Program-made: the position numbers and the translations under genes | Shown here: piece by piece, positions 1,968 through 50,680 of the stretch | Numbering within the stretch: position 1 is the stretch's first letter | How the letters are laid out: the number at the start of each line of letters is the position of its first letter | Notes under the pieces: generated by a model | What the model saw: the letters and a program-made list of their open reading frames with translations, nothing else | Database searches by the model: none | What the model was told of the DNA's origin: nothing | Assembly (NCBI GenBank): GCA_046583355.1 | Contig: JAYGCM010000018.1 | Location: 1,302 to 65,301 of the forward strand | Length of the DNA stretch: 64,000 nucleotides | Source: Deltaproteobacteria bacterium | GTDB taxonomy: Bacteria; Desulfobacterota; Binatia; UBA12015 | Reading direction: 5' to 3'

Positions 1968-3232
1968 GGAGTGTCATCCTCGCCAGCGCCTCGCCGCGCC
2001 GCCAGGATATGCTGGCGCGCATCACCTGGCCCTATGCGATTGCGCCGGCCGATATAGACGAGACGCAGCTGGCCGGTGAGGCGGCCGAAGCCTATGTGCG
2101 ACGACTGGCGTGCGCCAAGGCCTGCGCGATCAGTCGCGAGCGCCCGCAGGCGGCGGTGCTCGGTTCCGATACGATCGTTGTTCTGGACGGCAAGCTTCTC
2201 GGTAAGCCGGCCAACGAGGAAGAGGCTTTGGCCATGGTCGGCAGCCTATGCGGCCGCACGCATCAGGTGCTTACGGGGATTGCCTGGGCGGTGGGCGGGG
2301 AGGTGCGCGAAGCACAGGTGGTCACAAGTCGCGTGCGCCTGCGCGATGTCAGCGAGGCCGAATTGCGCGCCTATATCGCCACCGGCGAATGCATGGACAA
2401 AGCAGGTGGCTATGCGATCCAAGGCAAGGCCGGCTCGTTTGTATCGGGTGTTGAGGGGTCGGTCACGAATGTCATCGGGCTGCCGCTGGCGGAGACCGAG
2501 GCGCTGGCCCGAGCCATTGGTGTCGCGGCGCTCGCTGGGCCGCTGCCGCCCGACGCAGTAGAGCGCCGTTTTGCTGCGGTCGCGAGCGAGGTCCAGGCGC
2601 TTGCCGTGGCAAGCGGACGGCCGCCCGACTCGGCGCGTCTGCTGACGGTCGTAAAAGGTCTGCCGGTGGAGCTGGCCGAGGCTGCGGTACGCGCTGGCGC
2701 GCGTGATCTCGGAGAGAATTATGTTCAGGAAGCCGCGCGCAAGCGCGAGCGTATCGGCGCTGGGGTAAATTGGCATCTGATCGGGCCCCTCCAGAGCAAT
2801 AAGGCAAAGCTCGCGGCCGGCGTTTTTGATTGTGTTCAGACGATCGCCAAGGCCTCTACCGCACGAGCCTTGGCGCGGCGGGCCACAGGGGAGATGCGGA
2901 TTCTCCTTCAAGTGAATGTGAGCCGCGACGCCGCCAAGAGTGGTGTTGTACCCGAGGGCCTGGCCGCACTCGCCGAAGAGTTGCGCGACGAGCCGAACCT
3001 GCGCGTCGAGGGCCTCATGACGATCGGGCGTGCGGGCGTGACGCGCGCCGAGACGCGGAAGACTTTCGCCGAGTTACACGAGCGCCTCTGCGACCTGCGT
3101 GCCCGCGAACTTCTGGCCGGCGAGGAATTGTCGATGGGCATGAGTGCTGATTATGATCTGGCGATCGCGGAGGGGGCGACCCAAGTGCGTCTGGGCACCG
3201 CCGTTCTCGGGCCGCGTCCGGCTGTGGCATAG
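1964..3232 (+). CDS. Maf-like nucleotide pyrophosphatase fused in-frame to YggS-family PLP-binding protein
   Basis: ATG at 1964 overlaps the xthA stop (ATGA). Residues 1-190 are Maf (ILASASPRRQ, VLGSDTIVVLDGK, GLPL). Residues ~215-422 are YggS (LGENYVQE, WHLIGPLQSNK, LSMGMSADY, VRLGTAVLG). No stop codon lies between them. Confidence 0.8.
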   Translation: MRSVILASASPRRQDMLARITWPYAIAPADIDETQLAGEAAEAYVRRLACAKACAISRERPQAAVLGSDTIVVLDGKLLGKPANEEEALAMVGSLCGRTHQVLTGIAWAVGGEVREAQVVTSRVRLRDVSEAELRAYIATGECMDKAGGYAIQGKAGSFVSGVEGSVTNVIGLPLAETEALARAIGVAALAGPLPPDAVERRFAAVASEVQALAVASGRPPDSARLLTVVKGLPVELAEAAVRAGARDLGENYVQEAARKRERIGAGVNWHLIGPLQSNKAKLAAGVFDCVQTIAKASTARALARRATGEMRILLQVNVSRDAAKSGVVPEGLAALAEELRDEPNLRVEGLMTIGRAGVTRAETRKTFAELHERLCDLRARELLAGEELSMGMSADYDLAIAEGATQVRLGTAVLGPRPAVA

Positions 3233-9714: not shown

Positions 9715-10260
9715 ATGGCGACTCGTATCGTAACCGTCGACCGAGAAAAATACCGCAAGGCGGCGGGGCCTTTTGGAGTCCGGGCTATCATGGTCGGACT
9801 CGGCGTCACTTCGCGTCATTTCTTCGGCAACCTCTGGGGCTGGATCATCGGCAAGCCTACCGTGGCCACCGTGATGTTCCCCGAGGAGCATCTGCCCAAG
9901 CCGCCCGCATTTCGTGGCATGCCCGTGCTGGTCGAAATGGACGGCGGCAAAGAGCGCTGCGTTGCTTGCGGCCTTTGCGAATGGGCCTGCCCGGTCGATT
10001 GCATTCATATCGAACCCGCCGAGACCAGCGACGAGGTCGAGCGTTACCCGCAGGTCTTCGACATCGATATGGGTCGTTGCATGTATTGCGGCCTCTGCGA
10101 AGAGGCCTGCCCCGAGGAAGCGATTGTCATGAGCGACCGCGTCGAGATCTCCGCCTTCACGCGTGCGGGAACGATGTGGCGCAAGAGCGACCTCCTGGTG
10201 CCCGCGAGCAAGCTCACGCGGCGCCTTGAGTATCTTCGCCGGAACTACGATCGGAGTTAG
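9715..10260 (+). CDS. nuoI: NADH-quinone oxidoreductase subunit I
   Basis: Two 4Fe-4S ferredoxin motifs (CVACGLCEWACP, CMYCGLCEEACP). ATG immediately follows the nuoG TAA. Confidence 0.9.
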   Translation: MATRIVTVDREKYRKAAGPFGVRAIMVGLGVTSRHFFGNLWGWIIGKPTVATVMFPEEHLPKPPAFRGMPVLVEMDGGKERCVACGLCEWACPVDCIHIEPAETSDEVERYPQVFDIDMGRCMYCGLCEEACPEEAIVMSDRVEISAFTRAGTMWRKSDLLVPASKLTRRLEYLRRNYDRS

Positions 10261-10262
10261 CC

Positions 10263-10814
10263 GTGGCCGACGACGCAGAGAACCAGGAGACGGCCGCCGA
10301 GGACGTGGCGGCCGAGTCCGTCCATCCCCTTTTTGCTCGCCTCGGCGAGAAATTCCCCGAAGGCATACTGGCAACAGCCGACTATCGCGGCGACCTATGC
10401 GCGACCATCGAGCGCAAGGCGTTGGTTGCTATAATGACTTTCCTGCGCGACCAAGAAGGCTTCGAGATGCTTCTCGACGTCACGGCCGTCGATTATCTCG
10501 GCCGCGCGCCGCGCTTCGAGATTGTCTATCACCTCGTTTCGCTCGAAGAGGCCACGCGCGTGCGCGTGAAAGTCCCGCTGGAAGAAGCGGATGTGAAAAT
10601 TCCATCCTTGACGAAGCTCTGGACTGGCGCCGATTGGCTCGAGCGCGAGACCTTCGATATGTACGGCATTGAATTCACCGGGCATCCGAACCTCAAGCGA
10701 ATTTACCTCTATGAGGAGTTCGTGGGCCACCCCCTGCGCAAGGACTACCCGAAAGAGAAGCGGCAGCCTCTGATCGGCCCCGGCGCGATCACCCGCAGCG
10801 GCGAGGCCGATTGA
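10263..10814 (+). CDS. nuoC: NADH-quinone oxidoreductase subunit C
   Basis: GTG start; 30-kDa subunit motifs (ERETFDMYGIEFTGHPNLKRIY). Confidence 0.9.
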   Translation: MADDAENQETAAEDVAAESVHPLFARLGEKFPEGILATADYRGDLCATIERKALVAIMTFLRDQEGFEMLLDVTAVDYLGRAPRFEIVYHLVSLEEATRVRVKVPLEEADVKIPSLTKLWTGADWLERETFDMYGIEFTGHPNLKRIYLYEEFVGHPLRKDYPKEKRQPLIGPGAITRSGEAD

Positions 10815-10815
10815 G

Positions 10816-12024
10816 ATGGCAGAGCAGATCCAGATAGAGGACGATACCATCGAGTTGCCACATGAGCCGCTTGAGATGAAGCTCGGCCCCTCGCATCCGG
10901 CCACGCATGGCACGGTGCGGATTCTTCTCAAACTCGACGGTGAGACCATTCTCAGCTGCGAGGTTGAGGTGGGCTATTTGCACCGCGGCTTCGAGAAGGA
11001 ATGCGAAAGCGGCCTCTATTACCAGGCATTCCCCTACACCGACCGGCTGAATTACGTCTCGCCGATGATCAATAATGTCGGCTACGCATTGGCCTGCGAA
11101 AAGCTCTTCGGCGTCGAGGCCCCCGAGCGTTGTCAGTACCTGCGCGTCATCGCCAGTGAGGCGTCGCGCATTGCTGACCACCTGACTTGCCTGGGTGCCT
11201 GCGCGCTGGAACTCGGTGCGTTTTCCGCCTTCCTCTATGCAGTCGAGGCGCGCGAGAGTGCCTGGGATATTCTGGACTCGATGTGCGGCGCGCGCGTTAC
11301 GCCCAATTACGTTCGCATTGGCGGCGTATCGCATGACACTGACCCCGACTTTCCCGAATTGGCGCGCGAGAAACTCGCTGAAGTCGCGCGTTTGCAGAAA
11401 GATTTCGAAGACCTCCTGCTCGCCAACCCGATCTTCCGTGAGCGCATGGAGGGCACCGGCGTGCTCGGTCGCGAAGAACTTATCTCCTTCGGCGTGACCG
11501 GACCTCTGCTGCGCGCAGCCGGCGTGCCCTACGACCTGCGTCGCGTCTCTCCCTATCTGGTCTACGACCGCCTCGACTTCGATATTCCGGTCGGTTCGAC
11601 GGGCGATAACTTCGACCGCTTCCTGGTCCGCCTTGAAGAGATCCGTCAAAGCGCGGGCATGATCGACCAATGCTTGAACGATATGCCAGAGGGGCCGGTC
11701 GATATCGACGATCCGCAGATCCGCTTGCCTGGCAAGAGCAAGGTTTTCGGGCAGATGGAAGAATTGATTGCACAATTTAAAATTGTCACCGAGGGGCCAA
11801 AGCCGCCGGCTGGCGAGGTCTATCAGGCAGTCGAAGGCGGCAACGGTGAGCTCGGCTTCTACCTGGTCAGCGACGGAAGCGGGAAGCCTCTGAAATGCCG
11901 TGCGCGTTCGCCGAGTTTTTCCAATACGGCAGCGCTCGGAAAAATGGTCGAAGGGAGCATGTTCGCCGACGTGGTGCCTACCTTCGATATGGTCAATATG
12001 ATCGGCGGCGAGTGCGACCGTTGA
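10816..12024 (+). CDS. nuoD: NADH-quinone oxidoreductase subunit D
   Basis: 49-kDa subunit: LGPSHPATHG, GYLHRGFEK, RIGGVSHD; 402 aa. Confidence 0.95.
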   Translation: MAEQIQIEDDTIELPHEPLEMKLGPSHPATHGTVRILLKLDGETILSCEVEVGYLHRGFEKECESGLYYQAFPYTDRLNYVSPMINNVGYALACEKLFGVEAPERCQYLRVIASEASRIADHLTCLGACALELGAFSAFLYAVEARESAWDILDSMCGARVTPNYVRIGGVSHDTDPDFPELAREKLAEVARLQKDFEDLLLANPIFRERMEGTGVLGREELISFGVTGPLLRAAGVPYDLRRVSPYLVYDRLDFDIPVGSTGDNFDRFLVRLEEIRQSAGMIDQCLNDMPEGPVDIDDPQIRLPGKSKVFGQMEELIAQFKIVTEGPKPPAGEVYQAVEGGNGELGFYLVSDGSGKPLKCRARSPSFSNTAALGKMVEGSMFADVVPTFDMVNMIGGECDR

Positions 12025-12034
12025 GGATATTTGC

Positions 12035-14137: not shown

Positions 14138-14280
14138 GCATTTTGCCGTACCACGACGCATCTGCCAGCGCATCACCTATACTGGGCATTAATCCGCTAT
14201 TGCTGAACATCCGATGTCCCCGTAGGCTTTCTTGATGCCCAGCCTTTCGGCCGGGTTGCTGGTCTGTGGAGATACCCCCA

Positions 14281-15762
14281 ATGAAGGTTCGTTTTTCGCG
14301 TTTCATCACGCTTCCCTTTGTCTGTCTGGTCGTCACTCTCGCCACGCTCTCGTCGTGCGCCAAGAAGAACGAGCCGCCTCCGGTACCGGATGGGTTGCAA
14401 ATCCTGCTTGAAGATGGCGATTCATTGCCGGGGAATTTCGTGATCCTCTCGATCGAATCCGCCAATATGGCGGCCGATCGCTCGATCTCCTTCATTGCCT
14501 CGCGGACGGGGTTGCCGTCGCTCAACGGTGTCTTCTACCGAACGCCTACAGGCGATATCCGGACGATCCTCACACCGGAGTCCGAGCAGGCCGGCGAGCT
14601 CTCCTTCACCACAGTTCGTAACCTCACCATGGCCCAAACCGGCGAGTTCGCCTTCCAGGTCGGCAACCGTCTCGACGACGACGGGCTCTTCTATTCCGAT
14701 GGCGAGACGCTGACCACGCTTGCCACGACGGATTCGGACGATGTCCTCGACGGCTTCCGGCTTCTCGGGGAATTGCGCGTTGCCAGCGGAGGTTCGGTCG
14801 CCTTCAGCGACGGAACCAGTCCCTGTATCGTGGACTCGTCAGGCGCGCAGGACCGTCTCACCTGCGACCTGCGGCTTCATTACGGGATGCCCGGTGATAT
14901 CCGCACCGTCAATGTTCCCAATGCGATGACCAACCAGAAGGCCAGTACCCTGATCCTGCAGGTCAACGCGAAAGCCGAGTTTGCCGTCGGGCTTCCGGCG
15001 CGCGGTGACGAACCCATGGTCGGCCGAATTCGTGACGGAATCTTTGAAGCACTGCTGACCCGGCGCGAGACTCTGCCGGGTCTGGGTGTCCTCACCGCCG
15101 CAAAGCCTCGCGCGATCGGCGCCAGCGGCGCGATCGGAATCGATGGGAGCTTCGACACGACCGGCGACGGCGACAAGGATACCGTACGCGTTCTCCTTTA
15201 TCGCGATGGCAATATCGAGGCGGCGGCCTCGACCTTGGATCAGACCCAATTGGGCGAGATAGTCGACCTGAACGCGGTTGCTGTCGATGACCGCGACCAC
15301 CTCTACTATACCGCCGAATTTGTGGTGGACGGCGACGAACGTGACCTCTTGCGTGTCTGGGATGGCACCGAAACCCGAGACATCATCTGGGATCGGATGT
15401 GGTACGGGGGCACGGATCCCAAGGGCCGGCGGCTGGCGATCACCGAAATCGTCCAGACTCGCGTCCTGGGCGACGGTACGGTGCTGATCATCGTGACGAT
15501 CGGCTTCTTCGAGGAGGGTACCCGTAAAATCACATCCAAGCAGCTTCTGCGTTGGCAGGACGGAGAGATCACCACGATCCTGCAGTCCAAGAGTCCGATC
15601 GGTGAGGGCACGCGCACCCTGGTCGGCTTCCAGATCGCCGATCTCAACTCGGCGGGCGACCTTCTTCTGATCGGCGAGATCAACGCGAAGTCAAACCGCG
15701 CACTTCTGCTTCTCCCGAGCGACGAAGTCTACGGCACGGCGACAAACGACGACAGCGCTTAG
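14281..15762 (+). CDS. lipoprotein of unknown function (repetitive D/G-rich, possibly beta-propeller-like)
   Basis: Signal peptide with lipobox LATLSS-C. GGAG lies 9 nt upstream of the ATG. Recurrent DG/DGT-containing segments. Confidence 0.55.
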   Translation: MKVRFSRFITLPFVCLVVTLATLSSCAKKNEPPPVPDGLQILLEDGDSLPGNFVILSIESANMAADRSISFIASRTGLPSLNGVFYRTPTGDIRTILTPESEQAGELSFTTVRNLTMAQTGEFAFQVGNRLDDDGLFYSDGETLTTLATTDSDDVLDGFRLLGELRVASGGSVAFSDGTSPCIVDSSGAQDRLTCDLRLHYGMPGDIRTVNVPNAMTNQKASTLILQVNAKAEFAVGLPARGDEPMVGRIRDGIFEALLTRRETLPGLGVLTAAKPRAIGASGAIGIDGSFDTTGDGDKDTVRVLLYRDGNIEAAASTLDQTQLGEIVDLNAVAVDDRDHLYYTAEFVVDGDERDLLRVWDGTETRDIIWDRMWYGGTDPKGRRLAITEIVQTRVLGDGTVLIIVTIGFFEEGTRKITSKQLLRWQDGEITTILQSKSPIGEGTRTLVGFQIADLNSAGDLLLIGEINAKSNRALLLLPSDEVYGTATNDDSA

Positions 15763-16928: not shown

Positions 16929-17531
16929 TTAGCGACGCTTCTTCGCGCCGGCCTTTTTCTTCTTGGCTGCGGCTTTTTTCTTCGGCGCAGCCTTTTTCTT
17001 GGCCACGGCCTTTTTCTTCGGCGCAGCCTTTTTCTTGGCTACGGCCTTTTTCTTCGGTGCAGCCTTTTTCTTGGCTACGGCCTTTTTCTTCGGTGCAGCC
17101 TTTTTCTTGGCTACGGCCTTCTTCTTCGGCGCGGCCTTTTTCTTGGCTACGGCCTTCTTCTTCGGCGCAGCCTTTTTCTTGGCTACGGCCTTCTTCTTCG
17201 CCACCGTCTTTTTGACGACAGGCTTAGTCGCAGTAGCTTTCTTCTTGCTACCGGCCTTTTTCTTGGCTGCGGCGCGCTTGGCTGCTGTGCGCTTCTTGGC
17301 GGCTTCGAGCTTCTTGCGAGCTGCTTCTTCCGAGAACTTTACGCCACCGACTTTGTAACGGCCGCGAACCTTCGGCTGGTACCGCAGGCGCATGGTGATC
17401 TTGTGCTGCTCGTAATGCTTTTCGCAGCGCCAGCCCTTGAAGGCTTTCTCGCTACAAAGAACACAAAGGCCCATGGCACGGTGCTTGCGCTGCCAGCGAG
17501 CCTGGCGACTGATTTGAGATGCGTCTTTCAT
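16929..17531 (-). CDS. histone H1-like / nucleoid-associated K/A-repeat protein with N-terminal Cys/His motif
   Basis: AGGAGG RBS 5 nt upstream of the ATG. N-terminus has C-x2-C-x9-C-x2-H. C-terminal tail is 6 x KKKAVAKKKAAP plus further AKK-rich sequence; 200 aa. Confidence 0.7.
   Translation of the reverse strand: MKDASQISRQARWQRKHRAMGLCVLCSEKAFKGWRCEKHYEQHKITMRLRYQPKVRGRYKVGGVKFSEEAARKKLEAAKKRTAAKRAAAKKKAGSKKKATATKPVVKKTVAKKKAVAKKKAAPKKKAVAKKKAAPKKKAVAKKKAAPKKKAVAKKKAAPKKKAVAKKKAAPKKKAVAKKKAAPKKKAAAKKKKAGAKKRR
16975..17215. repeat. perfect 36-bp tandem repeat array (~6.5 copies) encoding the KKKAVAKKKAAP repeats
   Basis: Unit ggcgcagcctttttcttggctacggcctttttcttc recurs head-to-tail with only silent or near-silent variants. 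Lies inside the CDS; there are no spacers, so it is not CRISPR. Confidence 0.85.
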
Positions 17532-18250: not shown

Positions 18251-19774
18251 ATGACCAACCATTCCCGCCGCGATTCGCTGAATGTGATCGTGGTGTTGCT
18301 CGATACGCTCCGCGCCGACCATCTCTCCTGTTATGGCGCCGGCCGTCGGACCTCGCCGAATCTCGACCGCATCGCGAGCCAGGCGACTCTTTTCGAAAAA
18401 GCGATCTCACCAGCCGCCTGGACGCCACCGGCGCATGCCTCGCTCTTCACCGGCACCTATCCCTCGCGTCACCGCGTGGACCGCAGCAACCTGACGTTGA
18501 GTGCAGACTTGCAACCTCTGCCGGAAGTCCTGCGTCGCGGCGGCTACCGAACCTACGGAGTCTCAAGCAACTACTGGCTCTCGCGAGAAACCTCCTTCGA
18601 CCGCGGCTTCGATGAGTTCGTGCATAGCTGGCAACTGGTCCAGACCGCGGGCACCAATGCGCCGCTGGCGCGTCAGCAGCGCAAACAGGATCTCGGCCTC
18701 GGCGAGTTGGGCGGGCCGGCGGAGACGCCGAGCAAATACGCGCAGCAGGCCAATCGGCTCTTCGAGAAGGCGACCAACAAACTTCGCAACCGCCTACAGG
18801 CCTATGATGACGGCGCCTACCGTGTCGTGAACCAGGTAAAACGCTGGATTCCACGTTGGGTCCGAGAAGAGCAGCCCTTCTTTGCCTTCCTGCATTTCAT
18901 GGAGCCGCATATCCGCTACTCCGCTCCGGGCCAATACCACCTCAAGCACGTCCCCAAGGGCGTCAGCGCCGAGCGTGCGCGCCAGGTGAATCAGGACCCT
19001 TGGCGTTTTCTCACCGGTCAAACCGAGATGACCGAAGAGGATTTCGTGATCCTCTCCGCTCTCTACGACGGCGAGATCAGTTATCTCGACTCCCGCATCG
19101 GGCAATTGCATGAAATGCTCGAGCGCTCCGGCCTGTTGGAGAATACCGTCGTCATCTTCACCAGCGACCACGGCGAGAACCTCGGCGAGCATGGTCTGAT
19201 GGACCATGCCTATTGCCTCTACGACACGCTGCTGAATGTGCCCTTGATCATTCAGGCACCAACTGAATTTACCGCCGGCGAGCGAATCTCGCGGCCGGTT
19301 CAGTCTGCCGATCTCTTCGGCACGATTCTCACGCTGGCCGGGATGGACGAAGACCCGGTCTGGGACCAGGTGCAGGCACGCAACTCGCTGCTGCCCGCGG
19401 AGGTCGCCAAGCGCAATGGGGCCGAGAACTACACGCTGGCGGAATATCGGGAACCACAGCCGCCCTTGTCCGTGCTGCGGCGACGCTTCGAAGGCTTCAA
19501 CGGAGCCTATTTCGATCGATCGTTGCGCATGGCACGGACCGAGACGCATAAATATATCTGGTCGTCGGACGGGCATGCCGAGCTCTATGATCTGACGAAA
19601 GATCCTGGTGAAGAGAAGAATCTGGTCAATATCGAGCGCGATACGGCCGCGCGGCTGGCCGGCGTAATCGACGAAAAGCTCGGGACCTTCGAAGCGCCCG
19701 ACGCCGGCGATACCGGCATCGACCTCGACGACGATACGCTCAAAAAACTCGAGCAATTGGGATACCTCGCGTAA
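18251..19774 (+). CDS. sulfatase-like protein (alkaline phosphatase superfamily) lacking the formylglycine motif
   Basis: N-terminus aligns to arylsulfatases (VLLDTLRADHLSCYG ~ ADDLGYGDLGCYG; SPNLDRIA). The C/S-x-P-x-R position reads AAWTPPAHASLFTG. Metal-site motif TSDHGE is present. Confidence 0.8.
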   Translation: MTNHSRRDSLNVIVVLLDTLRADHLSCYGAGRRTSPNLDRIASQATLFEKAISPAAWTPPAHASLFTGTYPSRHRVDRSNLTLSADLQPLPEVLRRGGYRTYGVSSNYWLSRETSFDRGFDEFVHSWQLVQTAGTNAPLARQQRKQDLGLGELGGPAETPSKYAQQANRLFEKATNKLRNRLQAYDDGAYRVVNQVKRWIPRWVREEQPFFAFLHFMEPHIRYSAPGQYHLKHVPKGVSAERARQVNQDPWRFLTGQTEMTEEDFVILSALYDGEISYLDSRIGQLHEMLERSGLLENTVVIFTSDHGENLGEHGLMDHAYCLYDTLLNVPLIIQAPTEFTAGERISRPVQSADLFGTILTLAGMDEDPVWDQVQARNSLLPAEVAKRNGAENYTLAEYREPQPPLSVLRRRFEGFNGAYFDRSLRMARTETHKYIWSSDGHAELYDLTKDPGEEKNLVNIERDTAARLAGVIDEKLGTFEAPDAGDTGIDLDDDTLKKLEQLGYLA

Positions 19775-19798
19775 GCGGGCGGCAAGGCGGAAACTACG

Positions 19799-20764
19799 AT
19801 GGCAATCTGGAATCGAAACCGGGGTGGCGGCGGTGATGCAGGCGCAGGTGGCGCGAGTCGCATTGTCGTGCCGGCCCTCACGAGGCAGGAACCTTTGCTC
19901 ATGCCAGCGCAGGAGGGGCTCAATAACTATATTATCGTGATCCTCGACAGCTGCCGCTTTGACGCCCTCAAATCGGCACAGCCGAAGACGCTCCTGAAGC
20001 TCGGCGAGCTGGAACGGCGCTGGAGTTACGCCTCTTGGACGGCGCCCTCGCATTATAATTTGCTGATGGGGCTACTGCCGCACCATAGCCCGCAACAGGT
20101 CTATGCCTCGGACTACTATAAAAAAGATTTCCTCAACTACCAGAAACGTCTGGGCGTCGAGGATATCCAATTCAAGAGTATGGTGCCGCAGCTTTTCCTG
20201 CCGACTTATTTGAAACATCGGCTGGGTTATCGCACCAATGCCTTGGTCTCCATGCCCGTGCTCAACCCGCAGACGCTGCTGAACAAGGACTTTGATCGCT
20301 ACGAATTGATGGCCAAGCATAACGATATGGACGCGATGCTTGATACCATGGAATTCCCCGAGGATAGGCCGTCCTTTTACCTGCTCAATACCGGCGAGAC
20401 GCATTACCCTTACGCCTTGCCCTCCGAGACCGAGAACGATTGGCCGAAAATCCACGGAGTCAACGGCGTTTTCAAGCATATGGGCGACAAGTTGGTGGAC
20501 GGCAAGATGGTTGAAGAAGAAGAGGAACCCGAAGAGTTCTTCGACCAACCGAAGCTCGACGCGTTGCGCCAGCGCCAGATCGAGGCCGTGACCTACCTCG
20601 ATACCGTCTTCGAGCGCCTCTTCGATATGGTGCCGAAGAATACCTTCATCACCGTCACCGCCGACCATGGCGAACTCTTCGGCGAGGAAGGCTACTTCGG
20701 TCACGGACCGATTGCCCACGAGAAGGTCTACGAAGTCCCCTTCCTTGAGGGCAAAATCCGCTAG
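19799..20764 (+). CDS. sulfatase-like protein, paralog of the upstream gene
   Basis: VILDSCRFDAL, ASWTAPSHYNLLMG (same W-T-x-P-x-H variant), TADHGELFGEEGYFGHG. Alternative start MPAQEG at 19901. Confidence 0.65.
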   Translation: MAIWNRNRGGGGDAGAGGASRIVVPALTRQEPLLMPAQEGLNNYIIVILDSCRFDALKSAQPKTLLKLGELERRWSYASWTAPSHYNLLMGLLPHHSPQQVYASDYYKKDFLNYQKRLGVEDIQFKSMVPQLFLPTYLKHRLGYRTNALVSMPVLNPQTLLNKDFDRYELMAKHNDMDAMLDTMEFPEDRPSFYLLNTGETHYPYALPSETENDWPKIHGVNGVFKHMGDKLVDGKMVEEEEEPEEFFDQPKLDALRQRQIEAVTYLDTVFERLFDMVPKNTFITVTADHGELFGEEGYFGHGPIAHEKVYEVPFLEGKIR

Positions 20765-30091: not shown

Positions 30092-31231
30092 ATGAGCGGA
30101 CCCCTGAGCGGATTCAAAATCATCGAGATGGCGGGCATCGGCCCTGGACCCTTCTGCGGCATGATGCTCTCGGACCTCGGTGCCGAGATTCTGCGCATCG
30201 ACCGGGCAGACAAGGTGAAACCCGACGCGGTGCCCAATACGGATCTGATGGGCCGGGGCCGCCGAAGTATTGGCGTGAACCTCAAAACACCCGAGGGCGT
30301 CGAGTTGGTGCTGGGCCTCCTGGAGAAAGCCGACGGCCTGATTGAAGGCTATCGGCCCGGCGTGATGGAACGCCTCGGCCTCGGCCCTGATGCCTGCCTC
30401 GCGCGCAACCCGGGTCTGGTCTACGGCCGCATGACGGGCTGGGGGCAGGACGGACCCCTGGCCCAGGCCGCCGGACACGATATCAACTATATCGCGATTG
30501 CCGGTGCTTTGGAGCCAATGGGTCGCAGCGGCGAGGCGCCCCTTCCGCCGCTCAATCTGGTCGGCGATTTCGGCGGCGGCGGTATGTTGCTTGCCTACGG
30601 CATGGTTGCGGGGATGCTTGAGAAAACGCGGTCGGGCAAAGGCCAGGTCATCGACGCGGCCATGGTCGACGGCGCTGCCGCGCTGATGACGATGATCAAC
30701 GGAATGCGGCAGACCGGCTTCTGGAAAGAAGAGCGCGGCGCGAACCTGCTCGATACCGGTGCCTTCTATTACGATGTCTATGAGTGCAGTGATGGGAAAT
30801 TCATCTCGATCGGTGCGATCGAACCGCAATTTTATGCCGAGATGCTTGAGAAGCTGGGCTTGACGCACGACGATTTCCCAGGGCAATTCGAGCGCGAGAA
30901 ATGGCCCGCGGCCAAAGTGAAAATCGCCGCCATCTGGAAGACCAAGACGCGCGCTGCGTGGTGTGAAATCTTCGCCGGCAGCGATGCCTGCTTTGCGCCC
31001 GTGCTCGCGATGTCCGAGGCGCCTGAACATGAGCATATGAAGGCCCGCGGCACCTTCGTCGAGCGCGATGGCATGGTGCAAGCGGCGCCGGCACCGCGTT
31101 TCTCGCGCACGCCGGGCGAAATTCAGGGCCCGCCGGTGAACCCCGGGCAACATACCGACTCGGCGCTTGCCGATTGGGGGCTGTCGGCAGACGAGGTCGC
31201 CAAGCTCAAAGCGAGCAGCGCGATCGCCTAG
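30092..31231 (+). CDS. CoA transferase family III (CaiB/BaiF; alpha-methylacyl-CoA racemase-like)
   Basis: GFKIIEMAGIGPGPFCGMMLSDLGAE, GYRPGVMERLGLGPD, HDINYIA motifs; 379 aa. Confidence 0.85.
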   Translation: MSGPLSGFKIIEMAGIGPGPFCGMMLSDLGAEILRIDRADKVKPDAVPNTDLMGRGRRSIGVNLKTPEGVELVLGLLEKADGLIEGYRPGVMERLGLGPDACLARNPGLVYGRMTGWGQDGPLAQAAGHDINYIAIAGALEPMGRSGEAPLPPLNLVGDFGGGGMLLAYGMVAGMLEKTRSGKGQVIDAAMVDGAAALMTMINGMRQTGFWKEERGANLLDTGAFYYDVYECSDGKFISIGAIEPQFYAEMLEKLGLTHDDFPGQFEREKWPAAKVKIAAIWKTKTRAAWCEIFAGSDACFAPVLAMSEAPEHEHMKARGTFVERDGMVQAAPAPRFSRTPGEIQGPPVNPGQHTDSALADWGLSADEVAKLKASSAIA

Positions 31232-31317
31232 AGGCACGGCCGAAAAGCCGGGCTTTGCACAGAGGCAGGCCTGTTTTTCGGCCGGGGCGTTCGAGGTTCG
31301 GTAGTCGGCCGCCGGCG

Positions 31318-31851
31318 TCAGGAGAGTGGGAACTCGAGAAAGAAGGTGCCGGGGGCCGCGTCGTTGCCCGACTCGCCGCTATAGCCCCGACGGTGGTAGA
31401 GCCGGCGCGCTTGGCGATTGTCTTCACGGACTTCCAGGGTGACTTTGCAGCAACCGCGCTTTTCGGCTTCGCGCTCGGTGCGGCGCAATAGTTCGTTGGC
31501 AACACCGCGGCTGCGAAATTCTCGGCGGACCATCAAGTCATGCACGTTCAGAACCGGCGCGGCATGGAAGGTCGAGAAACTCATCAGGCAGACGGCCATT
31601 CCGGCCGGTTCCTCGCCCAGGTAGGCGAGGAGGACCAAGGCACCGGGTATATCGCGCAATCCGACGATCGCAGCGCGGCGCAGAGCTTCGGGCAGCCCGG
31701 AATCGTCTTCGAGCAATTCGCGTGCGTATTCGTCGAGGAGGCCGCTGAACAAGGCGGCATCCGCGGACGCGTCGAGGTCGGCTACACGGACCGTGCAGGC
31801 GGGGCCGGGCGGGATTTGTGGCGGAAGGTGTCGGAGAGTCTGGCTCATCAA
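31318..31851 (-). CDS. GNAT family N-acetyltransferase
   Basis: Acetyl-CoA binding motif RREFRSRGVANELL; 177 aa. Confidence 0.75.
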   Translation of the reverse strand: MMSQTLRHLPPQIPPGPACTVRVADLDASADAALFSGLLDEYARELLEDDSGLPEALRRAAIVGLRDIPGALVLLAYLGEEPAGMAVCLMSFSTFHAAPVLNVHDLMVRREFRSRGVANELLRRTEREAEKRGCCKVTLEVREDNRQARRLYHRRGYSGESGNDAAPGTFFLEFPLS

Positions 31852-32029
31852 TTCGTTTCAAGCGGGGGCAAGATGGAAAAAGCGGGGCTGCGTCAAAAAT
31901 ACCTTCACCCGAAGGCGATGTCCAACCTGACCAATCGGCCGGCGCATCGGCTGCAGGAGGATTCCGCTTCCAAGAGCTGCCGCGAGTTCGGTGAATTTTC
32001 GACTCGAGCGCGCTAAAAACCAAACTCCA

Positions 32030-32932
32030 ATGGCAGAGCGCATCCCCGTAACGGTTCTCAGCGGTTTTCTCGGCAGCGGCAAAACAACCCTCCTGAACCG
32101 CCTTTTGCATGATGCGCATGGCTATCGCGTGGCCGTCGTGGTCAACGAATTCGGCGAGGTTGGCATCGACGGCGCGCAGGTGGCCGGAGCCGAGCAATTC
32201 GTTGAACTCGATAATGGCTGCCTTTGCTGCACGATCAACGAAGATCTACAGCGCACTTTGCGGGAGTTGCATACACGCGGCGGTTTCGACCACCTTCTGC
32301 TCGAGACGACGGGGTTGGCCGATCCGCTGCCAGTCGGTTGGACCATGAGCAAGGAGGGTCTGGTCGAGAATTATCGTCTCGACGCGCTGATCACAGTGGT
32401 CGATGCACTCAACCTGGAACAGGCTCTCGGCGAGGCGCCCGAGGCCGAGTTGCAGATCGACCGTGCCGATATTCTCATCTTGAACAAGCTGGACCTGGTG
32501 GACGATGCGGGAGCGGCGGCCGAAGCGCGCGTCCGGACGATCAATACGCATGCGCCGATTCTGCCCGCGACGCGGGGCAATATTCCCTGGGAGGTTTTGC
32601 TTGCGGCGTCGCCCGTGGACACGATTCGCAAGGTCGGCGAAGAGAGCCACCATCATCCCTCGCTCGAAACCTGGACCTTCCAGACTCCCGAGCGATTGGA
32701 CGACCAAGCGCTCGAAGATTTTCTCTACGAAATCCTCTCCGGCGTTTATCGCCTCAAAGGAATCGTGCGGACCAATGGCCCGTTTGCGTGGACTTCCGTG
32801 AACGGTGTCGCGGGTCGATTTGAAATGGAAGATTTCGACGGGACTCCGCCTCGCCAGAGCACTCTGGTTTTCATCGGCCGTACCCTCGACCGCGAAGATC
32901 TCGCCCGGCGCTGCGCCGGGCTGCTTGCTTGA
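32030..32932 (+). CDS. CobW/COG0523 family G3E GTPase (putative metallochaperone)
   Basis: Start [23 protein letters not shown] (P-loop), CxCC motif (GCLCCT), short His-rich stretch HHHP. Confidence 0.85.
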
Positions 32933-33401
32933 ATTGCAGGCCCTTTGCCCGGCCGCCTCGGTGGGCTTCCGCGTGGCGGAATCGTCGATCGCGCTGCTGG
33001 GCATGGAGGTGCGCGCACCATCGAGCGAAATCCATCTCGCGGGTGGCAGTGCCGACCCATTGCATTTCGAGGTTACCCGCGACGGAGTGATCGAGGCCGA
33101 GATCCGCGATGCGCGCGGTTTGAAGGTTCGTTCGATGCCACTTGGCGCGTACGCATCGGGCTCGCATCTCTTCGACCCAACGACCCTCACCGAAGGAGTC
33201 GGGCTGCCCGACGGTCGCTACCATATTACCTTCCGCTATCAGGGCGGCGAAGCGGGAACGCTTGCCAGCTTCGCCGAGGGCCGTGTGGACGGCATCGAAT
33301 TCGATGAAACTGGCGATTTTCTACTTGTAGGGGGCCATCGAGAGTACGGGGCGCCCGACAGATATGGCAATCGAGGGCAGTGGGTTCTTCGTTCTCACTG
33401 A
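32933..33401 (+). pseudogene. flgD: flgD remnant (C-terminal domain only) of flagellar hook-capping protein
   Basis: Translation (GLPDGRYHITFRYQGG...VDGIEFDETGDFLLVGG) resembles the FlgD C-terminal Ig-like/Tudor region. No N-terminal half is present; the reading frame runs out of the cobW-like gene. Confidence 0.45.
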
Positions 33402-34165
33402 TGGTGACGCGCAACTCTATACCCGTGCCGGCAATTTCCACCTCGATGCGAATAGTCGCCTCGTGAACGGACAGGAATTTGCGGTGCAGGGTTTCGCACT
33501 GGACGCCGCGGGCAACGCGGTAGCAGGCGCGAGCGATATCGATTTCAGCAGCGTCAGCGCCAGTGCAGTCGAGACGACTCGGCTCGATATCTCGAACAAT
33601 CTCTCCGCCGATGCACAGGTAGTGGTTGGTGGATTTGACGGCAGTAGTTTCGCTGCCGCCTACGGCTCGAGCAATTATGCCACGACGACCAGGGTCTTCG
33701 ACTCACTCGGGCGTTCGCATGAGATGACACTCTTTTTCACCAAAACCGGTGCGAATGCCTGGGAGGTCAATGTCGGCGTCAATCGCGAGGATCTTCCGGG
33801 CAGGCAACCCCGCCGGACTCCAGATCATGGGCACGACAGGCGTGACCTTCGATGGGACGGGCGCCCTGACCGCGCCGGCCCCATTGGATATCGCGGTGAC
33901 CTTCGATGGCGCGGCCGCCCAGACCGTAGGGATCAACCTGGGCACGCCAAGCACCACTCCGGGCGACGGCCGAGTCCGGCACAGCCGAGGTGGGAACAGC
34001 GGCGGCCTGGGGAGCATCATTGGCTCCGCGATTGAGCGTGCCAATGTGGAGCTGGCAAAGGAGTTCGTTGACCTCATCTCTTTGCAGCGCAGCTTCCAGG
34101 CGAATGCCCGGGTCATCACAACCAGCGATGGCCTGCTCAATGAGCTGATCAATATCGTTCGTTAG
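33364..34165 (+). pseudogene. flgE: flgE (flagellar hook protein) remnant, N-terminally truncated and frameshifted
   Basis: Frame 1 has MAIEGSGFFVL...YTRAGNFHLD...VQGF and DSLGRSHEMTLFFTKTGANAWEV. After ~33790 the FlgE-like sequence continues in frame 2 (NPAGLQIMGTTG...ANVELAKEFVDLISLQRSFQANARVITTSDGLLNELINIVR). The ~80 N-terminal residues are absent. Confidence 0.7.
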
Positions 34166-36222
34166 GGCGCGATGGCTTCGGCGGGGGCGGGCCATGAGGG
34201 AGGATAGTCGCCCAATGGCTCAGGCCCCTTTCGGCGGCGCAACTCGGCGAAAATACGCCGCGATTGCGCGAGCTGCGCCGGGGAATATTTCAAGCGCAGG
34301 ATCTGAACGCCATCATGGTCGTAGACCAGCTCAAGGCGCGGTTGCCGGGCGAGTTTGCGGGCGTCGACGATCCCGCGTGCCGATCGACTGAAATAATAAT
34401 AACCGACGCCGCGCAGCAGCAGCTGGTTGAGCTTGCGATCAGCGAAACCGGGCTTGCGTTGCAAAGCGAATTGCCTTGCCGCCCGTTGCAGAAAGCGCGG
34501 CGCAAGCGGCGCGAGCATCGGCCCCGGGATCGTTTGGTGGCCGGTGAAGTAGGGGATCCAATAGCCGCCGTCGGTCCCCACGATGAAGTCCGGGAAGAGG
34601 GCATGGCCCGCGATCGCAAAGCGTTCGCGCGGGGCGACATTCTCGCGAATCCAGGCGAATGCTTCGATATCGGCGGTTTCGACGAGATTATGGGCGGCCG
34701 GAATTTCCTCGATCCTTGTGGGCAGCGAGAGCAGCCCGAGGACGAAAGCCGTACCGACGGCCGCCCTCTGCCAGGAGTCCTGGCGTGCCAGCGGCAGCAT
34801 CTCCCCGACGGCCTGGACGCCACAACCGAGCAGGAGAGCCAGCGGAAAATAGAGAAATATCAGAACAGAATTCAACGGTACGATATTCAGAACATGGATG
34901 CCTAAGTAGGGCACAGCGCCGAGCAGAAGGAGTGCGAGCGTCCAGGCCAGAACGATCCGACTCAGACGTTCGCCGCGCAAAAGCGCGATCGCGCCGAAAC
35001 TCAGGCCGGCAAAAATCAGCAGAGGCGAGCCCACCCATTGTGTGAGAGGGAGGGATTCCCATGTCCGGAAATACTCCTCTGCGTTCAGCCCACGCAGGTC
35101 ACCAGTCCCCGACCATGAATTGCCGTCGCTGGCGAGGAACCAATGCCCCCAGACCCAATGCCACAAGCCGCGGCCATAGCGTGGCAGGAGCAGCAGCAGG
35201 GCAGCCAAGCCGCCGCCGAGCACGGGGAGAAGGAGCTTTCTCATCCGTCCACTGCCTCGTGCCGCGGCCATCTCATGGGCGAGCGTGAAGAGCAGGAGAG
35301 GAACAAGAAAAAGCGCCACACGCAGATGCACCAGGGCTACGGCGGCCGAAAGAAGAATGGCGAAAGCGCCGAGGATGGCGGTTGGTGGGCCGGCGGCCGA
35401 CGAGGATGGCCGGTGCAGGCGGCGCAGCCACTCCCAACTGACGACCCAGGCAATCGGCAGAATCGCCTGGCCGGCGACCTGGGTGAAGCGGCCCCACCCG
35501 AGATACGCACTCGGCATGGAATTGATCAGACCGACGCTGAGGGCACCCACCAGGGCAGCCGGCCGTGAGACGTGGCGGTCAAGCACCAGATAAACACCGA
35601 GGGCGGCCAGCGCATTGAGAAGTTGGCCCATCCACACCAGCGCGACAAAACCCTCCACATTGCCGAGCCAGGCCGTAGCGGCGGTGATCGCATAGAGGCC
35701 AAGGTGGTAGCGATCCAGCTCGATGGCCGGGAAGACGGGCATCGTCTGCGGTAAAAGACCGCTGCGCGCCACCTCTTCAGTCAGCATGGCATGGTGCAGG
35801 GAATCGGTAAGGGGAGGCACGGGGAAGAGATCGGCAAGCCAGGCCCGCAGGCCGACGATCAGCGCGAAGGCCAAGAGCGCCAGGGCCTCTCCCGATCCGA
35901 CGCGAAGCGTCGCGGGGCGCCGCCAGAGTTGGGCCAGGACCATCAGCCCCGCCAGGCCGATTAGGACCTGGAAAAAACCGGCCTCCAGCGGCGGCCAGGT
36001 GGGCCAGACGACGCGCAAGACGCCGGCGGCGGCGAAGAGGAGAGGCGGTAGAGCGGCGCCGATTCCGGCGGCCACGAGCCAGCCCTGGAGGCCACGAAAG
36101 CTCCGATCGAGGCCACAGGCGCCCAGCAGGGCACGGCCCGGCAAAAGCAATAGGGCGAGTGCAGCGAGTGCGGCGCAAAGTTCGGCGTGGCTCGAAGGCA
36201 TGGCTGAGGAACCTGGTATCAT
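34162..36222 (-). CDS. large polytopic membrane protein of unknown function (possible GT-C-like)
   Basis: 686 aa; >10 predicted TM helices in the first ~450 aa and a C-terminal soluble domain. No recognisable catalytic motif. Confidence 0.55.
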   Translation of the reverse strand: MIPGSSAMPSSHAELCAALAALALLLLPGRALLGACGLDRSFRGLQGWLVAAGIGAALPPLLFAAAGVLRVVWPTWPPLEAGFFQVLIGLAGLMVLAQLWRRPATLRVGSGEALALLAFALIVGLRAWLADLFPVPPLTDSLHHAMLTEEVARSGLLPQTMPVFPAIELDRYHLGLYAITAATAWLGNVEGFVALVWMGQLLNALAALGVYLVLDRHVSRPAALVGALSVGLINSMPSAYLGWGRFTQVAGQAILPIAWVVSWEWLRRLHRPSSSAAGPPTAILGAFAILLSAAVALVHLRVALFLVPLLLFTLAHEMAAARGSGRMRKLLLPVLGGGLAALLLLLPRYGRGLWHWVWGHWFLASDGNSWSGTGDLRGLNAEEYFRTWESLPLTQWVGSPLLIFAGLSFGAIALLRGERLSRIVLAWTLALLLLGAVPYLGIHVLNIVPLNSVLIFLYFPLALLLGCGVQAVGEMLPLARQDSWQRAAVGTAFVLGLLSLPTRIEEIPAAHNLVETADIEAFAWIRENVAPRERFAIAGHALFPDFIVGTDGGYWIPYFTGHQTIPGPMLAPLAPRFLQRAARQFALQRKPGFADRKLNQLLLRGVGYYYFSRSARGIVDARKLARQPRLELVYDHDGVQILRLKYSPAQLAQSRRIFAELRRRKGPEPLGDYPPSWPAPAEAIAP

Positions 36223-36424
36223 GTCTCGCCTGCAGAGGCCCGACGGTCAGGATTCCCGACCAGGGGGGCGGACTTTCTGACTGTGGCGAAAAGATGATAC
36301 CCGAGAAAAGCGCAGCAAAACCTTGGCGCTTTTACCGCTCGCGGCCGAGAGGAGAGGTTTATCGTCAGGCACGCGAGTTGCACTAAGCCCCAATGTGTCC
36401 GGTTTTCCGGACCGGGAGGATTTG

Positions 36425-37366
36425 ATGGCAGCCGCAGCAGAAGGAACCGAAGATGTCCCAAACGAGAAGAAAAACGCCGCTGGGGGCAAGAGCAAGATTC
36501 TGATGATCGTACTGCCTCTGCTTCTCCTTGTCGGAGGCGGCGGTCGCTACCTCAAGACCACCATCGAGGTTGAGTTCGTCTCCGACACGGCTTCAGATAC
36601 CGAGGAAGCCCGCTCTTACGATATTCTCGGCGAGGAGCGTTCGGCAACCCGACAATTTCCAGGTCTGGATCTGGTGCACGACCGTTTCATCCGCATCATG
36701 CGTCAGGCGCTCGGGACTCTGGTCGGCACGGCGGTCACAATCGAGATCGCCTCGGTAGATGGCCTGCGCTTCGCGGCCCTGCGCAATCGCCTCGAAGCAG
36801 GGGTGCCCGTCTGCCTTTTTCGGATGTCGCCGCTGCGCGGGCAGGCAATCGCAGCCTTCGCTCCCTCCTTGATCTTTCAGATGATTGATCGAATCTTCGG
36901 GGGCTCCGGACGTCCGCCAACCCAATTGGAAGAACGTGAATATTCGCCCCTGTAATTGCGGATCCTCGGCCGCATCCTCGATACCATACTTGCTGAATAT
37001 AGCGCTGCATGGGCGCCGATCGCAGCGCTGCAATGTACGTACTCCCGGACCGAGGTGAATCCGGCGGTGGTCTCGATCGCCGGCCCCGATGACATGGTTC
37101 TGGTGATGGAACTGACCTGTGACCTCGGTTGCGGTGCGGCAAAATTACACCTTGGAATTCCCTACGCGATGCTCGAACCCGTGCGGGTCAAGCTGAATGA
37201 GGCGATGCACCATGGTGGAGGGGCCGATTGCCTTGATCGGCAAACTCGAAGAGAAACAGCCGGCCTCGTGCGGGCGCCCATCGCCGTGAATATGAATACG
37301 CTCGAAGCGTGTCAGTTGGTCCTCGAATACAGCAAGCTGGCGCCCGCCCATCGCGTGATCGGCTAG
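36425..37366 (+). pseudogene. fliM: fliL'-fliM' chimeric remnant with internal in-frame TAA
   Basis: Residues 1-45 look like a FliL N-terminus (K-rich then a TM helix, KSKILMIVLPLLLLVGGGG). The rest is FliM-like (LDLVHDRFIR..., RMSPLRGQAIAAFAPSLIFQMIDRIFGG, LRILGRILDT...AW, GIPYAMLEPVR). A TAA at 36953-36955 interrupts a conserved segment. The FliM C-terminal SpoA domain and fliN are missing. Confidence 0.65.
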
Positions 37367-37392
37367 CCAGTCAGCCTGAGACGGCCTGGAAT

Positions 37393-38295
37393 TCAGGCGG
37401 GGGGAAGGCCGGTCAGGAAGTCGCGGATGACCTCGGCGACGGCCTCGGGTTTTTCGAGGTGGAGGCTATGGGTGGTTCCCGCAATCTCGGCGCCCGTGGC
37501 CGCGGGGAAACGCGCGACCATCTCGGCGTATTCGTTTGCCGGTAATATCGAGGACTCGCCTCCGCGTAAAACCAGAACCGGGATTTTGATCTCGCGGAAG
37601 CGATCGGGAAAATCCGCCAGCATATTGCCGTCAGGATCGCGGGGACCGCGCATGCGCGCCCAATGAAATTTCGACAAAAATCCCCCCTCGTCCGAGGCGC
37701 GAAAACTATGCCCGGCGAGATGCTCAACGACGGCGTCATTCGCCTTATGCGGCAGCGGGTAGGGTTGAAAGCCGCGCGTCGCCACCTCCCAGGAAGGATA
37801 GCGAATCTGCGGCACCCGACGCAGACGATCGCCGGTGCGACGCATGCTCGGTGCCAATGGGTCAAAGGGCATATCGAGGAGGATCAGGGCGCGCAGCGGC
37901 AAGCGTTGGCGCAAGGCGAGCGGCACCGAGAGCACGCCGCCCTGGGAATGGCCGAGGAGGATCCAAGGTGCCGGGTCGACCTGCATGCAGGCGGCCTCGA
38001 TATCTTCGATATCGCGCCGAAACCCATAATTGCCTGGTTCGGTCCAATCGCTCTCTCCGTGTCCGCGCCTATCCAGCGCGAAGGGGCGGGCCACGTCGCG
38101 CAGGCGAGGTGCGAGGAAATCAAAGAAGCGCGAATGTGCCATGCCGCCGTGCAGGCACATCAGCGGCGAGGCATCGACGCGCCCGCGATAATCGGTCAAA
38201 TGAAAGGAGAGATCGTCGATCGTCAGGGATCGCTCCGCAAAGGTCTCGACCACGTCCGCGCCGGCCAAGCCCCCGGCGGTCTTTTCTTCTTTCAT
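37393..38295 (-). CDS. alpha/beta hydrolase fold protein
   Basis: HGGMAHS oxyanion region and nucleophile elbow GHSQGG; 300 aa. Confidence 0.8.
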   Translation of the reverse strand: MKEEKTAGGLAGADVVETFAERSLTIDDLSFHLTDYRGRVDASPLMCLHGGMAHSRFFDFLAPRLRDVARPFALDRRGHGESDWTEPGNYGFRRDIEDIEAACMQVDPAPWILLGHSQGGVLSVPLALRQRLPLRALILLDMPFDPLAPSMRRTGDRLRRVPQIRYPSWEVATRGFQPYPLPHKANDAVVEHLAGHSFRASDEGGFLSKFHWARMRGPRDPDGNMLADFPDRFREIKIPVLVLRGGESSILPANEYAEMVARFPAATGAEIAGTTHSLHLEKPEAVAEVIRDFLTGLPPA

Positions 38296-48636: not shown

Positions 48637-49166
48637 CAAGCGTCTCATTGGCGAACTCATCCTGCCGCAGCCTTGGCATCTCTTCGACCACGAAGAGCAA
48701 GGCAGGATGGAACTTATGGAGCCGCGCGACCCCGCGGAATAGCTACCGCTTCCGCCTGGATTATAGACAGGGCGCGTTACGACCGATCAGGACAAATGCG
48801 CCCCAACGTCGAATCCAGCCACCGCTCAAGCCCCTGTTCTATAATGAGTTGGTGGTTGGCCTCCCGAGGCCTTCATGCATACTCCAACGCTATCCTCCTT
48901 GCTCTTCGGTCGAACGGATGCGGGCGCTTGCCCCATCCTGCGCACCGTCCTGGCGGCGATGGTGTTCGCCGTCCTGGGCTGGCACACATTCTTTCGACGA
49001 CGATACCGAACTCCAGATCTGGAACGTGCTTACGCAGGCGGGCCATCCCGAGGCGCAGGCAGCAGCGCCTCGTAGGCGCGCGGCGGCGCTCCGGGTCGAT
49101 TCGAATTTCGTCGGCGCGGGCTTGCGCCGAGCAGGCGTCTCGGCTGCGCGTGCGGACCGCCGAGTT

Positions 49167-50522
<1,356 letters not shown>

Positions 50523-50680
50523 CTCCCACGGCGCCGGCTCTCCGCATTTCTAGCTGCGATCCGGGACATTGAGCAAGCGTGAACTCGGGGGCGAACTTCC
50601 AATTCGGCAGGCCACCCGCCGGGCGGCATCGCATCGGGCCATATTGACCTCCTGCGAATCGCCGGATATTGACCAGCGCC

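Follow-up and report, generated by a model that had tools for sequence, protein, structure and literature searches.

The 64,000-nucleotide stretch analysed here (the window; contig JAYGCM010000018.1) contains, between a cobW-family GTPase gene and an alpha/beta hydrolase gene, four fragments of a flagellar operon: flgD', flgE', fliL' and fliM', the prime denoting a relic. Very probably these fragments are the remains of a recently inactivated flagellar operon that is eroding in place, and they persist because the gene they abut, coding for a polytopic membrane protein of 686 amino acids (aa) and termed memb686 in the following, is still under selection. Homology of the fragments, their lesions, synteny, neutral variation at the strain level and a comparison with relatives, in which the locus was either intact and in the ancestral layout or clean of flagellar DNA, carry this reading.

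The relic region analysed was 32985-34165 plus 36425-37228 on the + strand. FlgD, FlgE, FliL, FliM and further flagellar proteins of two relatives were run by tblastn against the entire window; of these, L001 was the source of the closest intact orthologues and L005 provided the flgC-to-fliA part of the operon, both having been recovered through FlgE matches. The spliced FlgE-like translation was searched against 5.8 billion proteins and returned 2681 FlgE proteins; the best were 423-428 aa long and belonged to uncultured 'Candidatus Binatia' or 'Deltaproteobacteria' metagenome-assembled genomes (MAGs). The window copy was aligned with six of these intact proteins. The memb686 protein served as probe for relatives in genome, metagenome and protein databases, and the loci of relatives were viewed with flanks of 10 kb. 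Two further loci are referred to throughout, the sister strain L014 (Logan contig, SRR22098103) and L023 (ENA ERZ28654605, TARA_SAMEA2620139 scaffold_355). The features of the locus were as follows (expectation values are given as E; ORF, open reading frame):

32985-33341, + strand: flgD' relic in frame 0, FlgD residues 83-198 of 213 (tblastn, E 3e-31, 49 % identity to L001 FlgD)
33325-33340, + strand: flgD'/flgE' deletion junction, flgD codon ~197 joined to flgE codon 72 (codon-level comparison with flgD and flgE of L023)
33331-33798, + strand: flgE' segment 1 in frame 1 with FlgE residues 72-227, covering D1, a portion of D2 and the end of the N-terminal region (72 % identity to L001 in tblastn, match to 33801)
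33795-33802, + strand: 4-bp tandem duplication GGCA-GGCA, shift from frame 1 to frame 2 (alignment with L014)
33803-33979, + strand: flgE' segment 2 in frame 2, FlgE residues 227-285, D2 and return to D1 (tblastn, alignment)
33980-33997, + strand: scar of an internal in-frame deletion of ~75-84 flgE codons, roughly residues 286/297-369 (alignment columns ~292-372, tblastn gap, codon view)
33998-34165, + strand: flgE' segment 3 in frame 2, FlgE residues 370-424 and stop, C-terminal D0 helix (tblastn, 89 % identity, E 4e-25)
36368-36381, + strand: sigma-54-type -24/-12 element GGCACGCGAGTTGC, upstream of fliL' (pattern common to the window, L001, L005 and L023)
36425-36589, + strand: fliL' relic (tblastn, blastp to FliL of L001 and L023, codon view of repeats)
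36584-37228, + strand: fliM' relic fused in frame to fliL', FliM residues 26-240 of 323 (tblastn, E 6e-99, 66.5 % identity)
34162-36222, - strand: memb686, intact gene for a 686-aa polytopic membrane protein (ORF listing)
32030-32932, + strand: cobW-family GTPase gene, intact, left boundary of the relic (Pfam cobW, CobW_C)
37393-38295, - strand: alpha/beta hydrolase gene, intact, right boundary (Pfam, synteny with L018-L022)

Flagellated relatives (L005, L023) carried a contiguous operon with the gene order flgBC-fliEFGHIJ-fliK-flgD-flgE-fliL-fliM-fliN-fliOPQR-flhBA-flhFG-fliA, and the four fragments left in the window had the same order and strand. In L023, a marine Candidatus Binatia from TARA, the flgB-to-fliA operon was complete and had memb686 inside, in the layout of the window: flgD-flgE were followed by memb686 on the opposite strand (10001-12034) and then by fliL-fliM, with stops of flgE and memb686 that likewise overlap convergently (17 nt in L023, 4 nt in the window) and with the same sigma-54-type element. 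Since L023 nests the same 686-aa gene between flgE and fliL, the window presents the orthologous operon site and not a stray paralogue. The relics were also slightly nearer to L023 than to L001 (FlgE 69 vs 66 %, FliM 68 vs 66.5 %), with 51 % identity of FlgD to L023. The two loci differ in what is left of the operon: L023 has full-length genes from flgB to fliA over ~22 kb, whereas in the window four fragments, ~2.2 kb in total, carry deletions, a frameshift and a nonsense codon. A tblastn search of the 64-kb window revealed nothing resembling FliE-K, FliN-R, FlhA/B/F/G or FliA and no further flagellar homologue. An initial annotation, made from the sequence of the window, had proposed a decayed flagellar operon and a comparison of synteny with flagellated relatives. 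The decay was substantiated by the intact operon in relatives, by the shared order and strand and by the truncations in L014; the comparison yielded intact loci in L023, L005 and L001, among which L023 had the same nested layout.

From the cobW stop to 34165, six-frame translation and the ORF listing gave three overlapping ORF pieces on the + strand. The first is flgD', the Ig-like/tudor C-terminal part of FlgD with the last ~15 codons gone. This C-terminal domain was recognised by FlgD_ig with 22.5 bits (32805-33401), which is under the Pfam cut-off of 27 bits, and by the NCBIfam model FlgD with an E of 1e-9; the FlgD N-terminal domain PF03963 was not found in the stub by Pfam or tblastn. A FlgD-like C-terminal domain lacking its N-terminal half had thus been read correctly in the initial annotation, but its placement in frame with the cobW-like gene does not hold: cobW lies in frame 2 and ends with its own TGA at 32930-32932, while flgD' is in frame 0. 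The junction to flgE' lies inside the G-rich microhomology GTAGGGGGCC, and ~320 bp are missing there, i.e., the 3' end of flgD, the spacer and flgE codons 1-71.

The FlgE homology begins at residue 72-76 of 424, leaving FlgE' without the first ~71-75 residues. PF00460 (Flg_bb_rod, the rod/D0 segment), present in all intact relatives, was not detected by Pfam in the FlgE' of the window. Segments 1 and 2 had a joint tblastn E of 6e-75. Pfam recovered D1 and D2 (LlgE_F_G_D1 PF22692 and FlgE_D2 PF07559) in 33331-34035 with E values of 2e-11 and 6e-11, with half of D1 deleted, and the C-terminal helix (Flg_bbr_C, PF06429) was present in 33749-34165 (E 4.5e-14). A FlgE sequence without its N-terminal part and with the canonical ...NIVR C-terminus, as first described, was therefore recovered by tblastn, Pfam and alignment alike. 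The same description had placed a shift from frame 1 to frame 2 near 33800, and the tblastn matches agree with it (33331-33801 in frame 1, 33803-33979 in frame 2), the frame being interrupted at the second unit of the GGCA duplication (33799-33802). The remedy suggested for it, an extra G, goes in the wrong direction; with a +1 shift of the part that follows, the frame is restored by taking out one base or four. Two lesions had been left out altogether: the internal flgE deletion between 33979 and 33998 (~75-84 codons), which removes the C-terminal half of D1, and the second relic, fliL'-fliM' at 36425-37228, beyond the opposite-strand gene.

In this second relic, the N-terminal ~38 codons of fliL (cytoplasmic and transmembrane parts) are joined to codons ~86-103, and the remainder of fliL is gone. 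A deletion between two GGN-GGN-GGN repeats removed about 50 fliL codons. The tblastn match to FliL amounted to about 17 residues (36545-36589), and the periplasmic FliL domain (PF03748) is missing, only codons ~1-38 and ~86-103 being left. A TAA at 36953-36955 divides a single frame into the ORFs 36323-36955 and 36956-37366; in intact FliM, this position is Glu149. The middle FliM domain (PF02154) was matched on both halves (E 2e-20 and 3e-16), with the open frame broken by the TAA. The N-terminal peptide of FliM that binds phosphorylated CheY was absent and the FliN-like domain PF01052 was not matched, the homology being limited to residues 26-240. An alternative genetic code as cause of the in-frame TAA was dropped, because translation with table 11 is normal for every neighbouring gene. 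Upstream of fliL, an element GGCACG-N4-TTGC was located 43-69 nt before the start codon in the window, L001, L005 and L023; it may have functioned as a promoter. With this sigma-54-type element in front of fliL, the flgE-fliL spacer would be a boundary of transcription units, which indicates that a foreign gene could be tolerated there without harm.

The sister strain L014 aligned to window positions 30763-38155 at 99.2 % identity, with 43 single-nucleotide polymorphisms (SNPs) and 3 indels. It repeated the junctions cobW-flgD' and flgD'/flgE', the deletion inside flgE, the nesting of memb686, the fliL'-fliM' fusion and the TAA. Since the truncations recur in this independent assembly, they are not the product of misassembly. 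Intact genes in the organism, with lesions introduced by misassembly or base-calling in a MAG, are thus a highly improbable explanation. The window probably does originate from a MAG, its hydrolase being identical to MFP6663378.1 of a 'Deltaproteobacteria bacterium' MAG, and the frameshift, not found in L014, may be an error or a minor variant as far as that single lesion is concerned. Against an artefact stand all the junctions, the fusion and the TAA reproduced in L014, and the nature of the frameshift. A homopolymer error at 33780-33810 had been named initially as something to exclude; the comparison CCG-GGCA-GGCA-ACC (window) vs CCG-GGCA-ACC (L014) presents instead a 4-bp tandem duplication. 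Moreover, the long genes around the locus are intact (AcrB, 1017 aa; DnaE, 1154 aa; GyrA/B-like topoisomerase subunits, Nuo subunits, GuaA/GuaB, BipA and HflX), with unbroken frames of up to 1154 codons, hence the assembly is not generally frameshifted. Judged from the two sequences, the frameshift of the window would reflect a polymorphism between strains or else a mistake in one of the assemblies.

The strains differed in their lesions. L014 was without 33799-33802, without one G of the G-run at 36263 and without 161 bp (36543-36703); this last deletion lies in fliL'-fliM' and breaks the frame. Its flgE' is a single frame of 276 codons, called as a 257-aa gene, uninterrupted, yet the N-terminus and the internal block are still gone. 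The ATG at 33364 in the window is CTG in L014, and the -24 GG of the sigma-54-type element is AG (SNP at 36368). SNP densities between the two strains were 12 per kb in flgD'E' and about 31 per kb in 36223-36542 (10 in 320 bp), vs 5 per kb in the intact genes to the left and 3 per kb in memb686. In the relic frames, 13 of 15 changes were nonsynonymous and 2 synonymous, whereas four of the intact flanking genes (CoA-transferase, GNAT, cobW, hydrolase) had 4 of 10 nonsynonymous and 6 synonymous (Fisher p = 0.028 vs the relic; memb686, with 5 nonsynonymous and 1 synonymous change, was left out of the flanking-gene count). The relic is under relaxed selection and evolves neutrally, and the SNP counts, small as they are, point in the expected way. 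As a separate observation, there was 1 SNP in the 1452 bp of 36704-38155, in contrast to ~8 per kb to the left of the 161-bp deletion; this drop points to a boundary of recombination or to a consensus of mixed strains.

The strain variation bears also on a possible new role of the fragments. An exaptation, i.e., an N-truncated FlgE' (276 codons in L014, called as a 257-aa gene) acting under selection as a functional non-flagellar protein, would account for the one open frame over D1, D2 and the C-terminal helix in L014, for the conservation of the frame in both large flgE deletions and for the 89 % identity of the C-terminal 55 residues to intact FlgE. It is nevertheless highly unlikely: the ratio of 13 nonsynonymous to 2 synonymous changes in flgD'E' and a SNP density two- to fourfold that of the neighbours (2-4x) argue against selection, the ATG at 33364 is CTG in L014 while the strain of the window is frameshifted, and the protein would be without the N-terminal segment for type III export, with no export genes at the locus. 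The 276-codon frame of L014 covers D1, D2 and the conserved C-terminal helix and abuts memb686. That FlgE' was exapted as a hook-domain protein, or that the 3' end of flgE' was retained as terminator or 3' region of memb686, appears on the whole very unlikely.

Without the N-terminal segment, proteins of the FlgE family are neither exported by the type III route nor able to pack their D0 helices and polymerise in the hook. The export-apparatus (export-gate) genes that follow fliM in relatives were absent at the window locus. None of the fragments can plausibly make a working protein, because FlgE would be without the N-terminal segment and half of D1, FlgD without the N-terminal domain, and FliM without both ends and with a stop. 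The cell would be non-motile.

A complete working flagellar regulon elsewhere, with motility retained and the present locus as a redundant second copy, is unlikely. Some bacteria carry two flagellar systems, and the 64 kb covered contain nothing that speaks against another locus. However, the nested memb686 and the gene order make the locus orthologous to the single main operon of L023, the relatives examined have their core export and motor genes within this single operon, L015-L017 as the closest sisters had no flagellar genes at the locus, and no second set appeared in the fetched loci of relatives within their 10-kb flanks.

Ten of the 12 relative loci presented the clean state, cobW-memb686-M50 without flagellar DNA. 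In these relatives (L008, L010-L012, L015-L017, L024-L026), cobW adjoined memb686 convergently with gaps of 13-140 bp, and on the far side of memb686 were genes for an M50 peptidase, a copper ATPase (CopA), a sulfotransferase and an enolase. They share with the window memb686 and the left synteny block MFP-AcrB-TrmO-amidohydrolase-CoA transferase-GNAT-cobW; they differ by the absence of flagellar DNA and in the region upstream of memb686, which contains M50 and CopA in these relatives but fliL'-fliM' and then the hydrolase-parE block in the window. The cobW protein of the window had 85-86 % aa identity to that of L015-L017 and 71 % to that of L008, and the 30 nt after the cobW stop (32933-32962) were still homologous to the spacer downstream of cobW in the flagellum-less relatives. 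Homologues of memb686 were found at 99, 80, 78 and ~50-55 % identity: 99 % in L014, ~50-53 % in L008, L010-L012 and L024-L026, 78-80 % in L015/L016 and L017, and 55 % in L023. The gene was kept in every relative recovered from flagellum-less loci and in L023. It had no match to a Pfam or NCBIfam family; a distant homologue weakly matched DUF6541.

In a neighbour-joining tree of memb686, L023 was sister to a group of window/L014, L015/L016 and L017, with the other clean lineages outside. As memb686 of the window is 80 % identical to that of L015-L017 and 55 % to that of L023, the nested layout is, under vertical descent, ancestral and not imported. An ancestral nested layout in turn means that L015-L017 and the outer clade each lost all trace independently; under vertical descent, complete loss would have happened at least two more times, as read from the gene tree. 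No traces of the flgE 3' end were detected in the cobW-memb686 spacers of the flagellum-less relatives, nor were there memb686 remnants in the flgE-fliL spacers of L001-L007. Parsimony could take the clean state in 10 of 12 relative loci as ancestral, with foreign operon pieces inserted around memb686 by horizontal transfer into a lineage never flagellated at this site. The probability of such an import is close to negligible: two colinear pieces on the same strand flank memb686 exactly as in L023, so an import of memb686 would be needed as well, while memb686 of the window is 80 % identical to its clean sisters vs 55 % to L023, and the conserved sigma-54-type promoter element of fliL is in its expected place. 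With the nested layout of L023, there was no need to derive the layout of the window from cobW-memb686-M50 through one inversion or two, a single transposition, or a tandem duplication followed by loss.

On the right side of the relic, the 165 bp between the end of the fliM' homology and the hydrolase stop (37229-37392) matched L014, which is the same strain, and no other fetched locus. They presumably present the junction of a rearrangement through which the hydrolase-parE block came to lie beside the dead operon. In relatives (L018-L022), this block adjoins, on the 3' side of the hydrolase gene, a gene for an AI-2E transporter and genes of the mevalonate pathway, not flagellar genes; with this neighbour in the relatives, the breakpoint falls inside the dead operon. 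The genes for the M50 peptidase, CopA and enolase that flank memb686 in clean relatives were absent from the window. The reciprocal junction of the rearrangement is to be expected at another site of the genome.

The locus very probably developed as follows. The ancestor had one flgB-to-fliA operon with memb686 on the opposite strand in the flgE-fliL spacer. Once selection for the flagellum had ended, serial deletions, several of them between short G-rich repeats, would have stripped nearly the whole operon. The survivors are the pieces beside memb686, which would still be needed: flgD 83-198, flgE 72-285 and 370-424, and fliL 1-38 and 86-103 fused to fliM 26-240. Point lesions would have been added later: the TAA in fliM (both strains), the GGCA duplication (window), and the 161-bp deletion, the loss of the ATG and the promoter mutation (L014). 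That the deletions stopped at memb686 would be owed to selection on this gene. One nonsense codon in 656 relic codons gave a neutral divergence of ~0.02 per site (95 % upper bound, roughly 0.10), estimated from the stop-creating potential of the relic codons. The G+C content at third codon positions (GC3) was 0.68 in the relic vs 0.76-0.78 in intact orthologues. Nucleotide identity between the lineage of the window and the nearest sampled relatives was ~77 %; decay proceeded mainly by deletion and is young relative to this split. A recent loss, as supposed initially, fits the single nonsense codon in 656 and a divergence of ~0.02, and the light load of point mutations suggests that the loss was recent.

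Several points weigh against an operon eroding in place, or against parts of its history. Only the 64-kb window was covered, and another flagellar set may lie outside it. L014 may come from the same sample as the MAG of the window or from a sister sample, which makes it an independent assembly, not necessarily an independent population, and the SNP counts are small. The L001-type FlgE is 91 % identical to the FlgE of L023, yet L001 is without memb686 between flgE and fliL and has a spacer of 196 bp there vs the 2-kb gene in L023; these L001-type relatives leave room for more than one history of the nesting. The flanks of the L023 operon fall outside the viewed region, and cobW and M50 would have bracketed the ancestral operon by comparison with the other loci. 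Finally, deletion alone is insufficient for the right junction and the absence of M50 and CopA, and at least one extra rearrangement is needed.

Apart from the flagellar locus, the window contained features without relation to it. A single ORF of 499 aa (1733-3232, + strand) encoded both a Maf-like and a YggS-type Ala_racemase_N domain and is either a fusion or an over-extended ORF covering two genes. Two adjacent sulfatase ORFs were located at 18251-20764 (+ strand); the second (19799-20764, 321 aa) had a weak match to positions 40-270 of a 301-position profile and may be truncated or divergent. Three long ORFs with high GC3, at 14266-15762 (+ strand, 498 aa), 48648-50582 (+ strand, 644 aa) and 16929-17531 (- strand, 200 aa), matched no Pfam family at the thresholds used.

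Decay of flagellar genes is known from lineages that gave up motility, such as Shigella, Yersinia pestis and Burkholderia mallei. The window resembles these cases in the deletions, frameshifts and nonsense codons affecting a costly, dispensable organelle, and in fragments that evolve neutrally and with a deletion bias. It differs in that over 85 % of the operon has been lost with a light load of point mutations, in that the survivors abut a retained nested gene, and in relatives that come from marine metagenomes. For the Binatota, flagellar genes have been reported in some orders and were absent from Bin18, HRBin30 and UBA1149 (Murphy et al. 2021, mBio; PMC8262859). This survey scored presence or absence per genome and described neither relics nor a nested gene (PMC8262859); the patchy distribution is consistent with repeated loss. 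A depletion of motility genes is also known for host-associated bacteria, sponge-associated communities being one example (PMC9531527). A life as sponge symbiont as cause of the loss (Bin18; PMC8262859, PMC9531527) was not adopted, the records of several relatives pointing to marine surveys.

Flagella are often lost by gene decay; the basic finding is therefore no surprise and adds no new principle. Its value lies in a clean, datable case from an uncultured phylum, the Binatota, whose genomes have until now been scored simply as having or lacking motility. The orthologous locus was recovered in three states: a 22-kb operon, 2.2 kb of fragments ~50-70 % identical to working proteins (up to 89 % at the FlgE C-terminus), and full removal. 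Repeat-mediated deletion outpaces point mutation at this site, the last fragments sit beside a gene that would still be needed, and co-existing strains carry different fresh lesions. Automated MAG annotation may call such fragments 'FlgE' or 'FliM', as on the L014 contig, and score the organism wrongly as flagellated. With intact, relic and clean loci and at least three independent losses under vertical descent, the marine Binatia clade would offer a natural series for the erosion of an operon around a nested gene.

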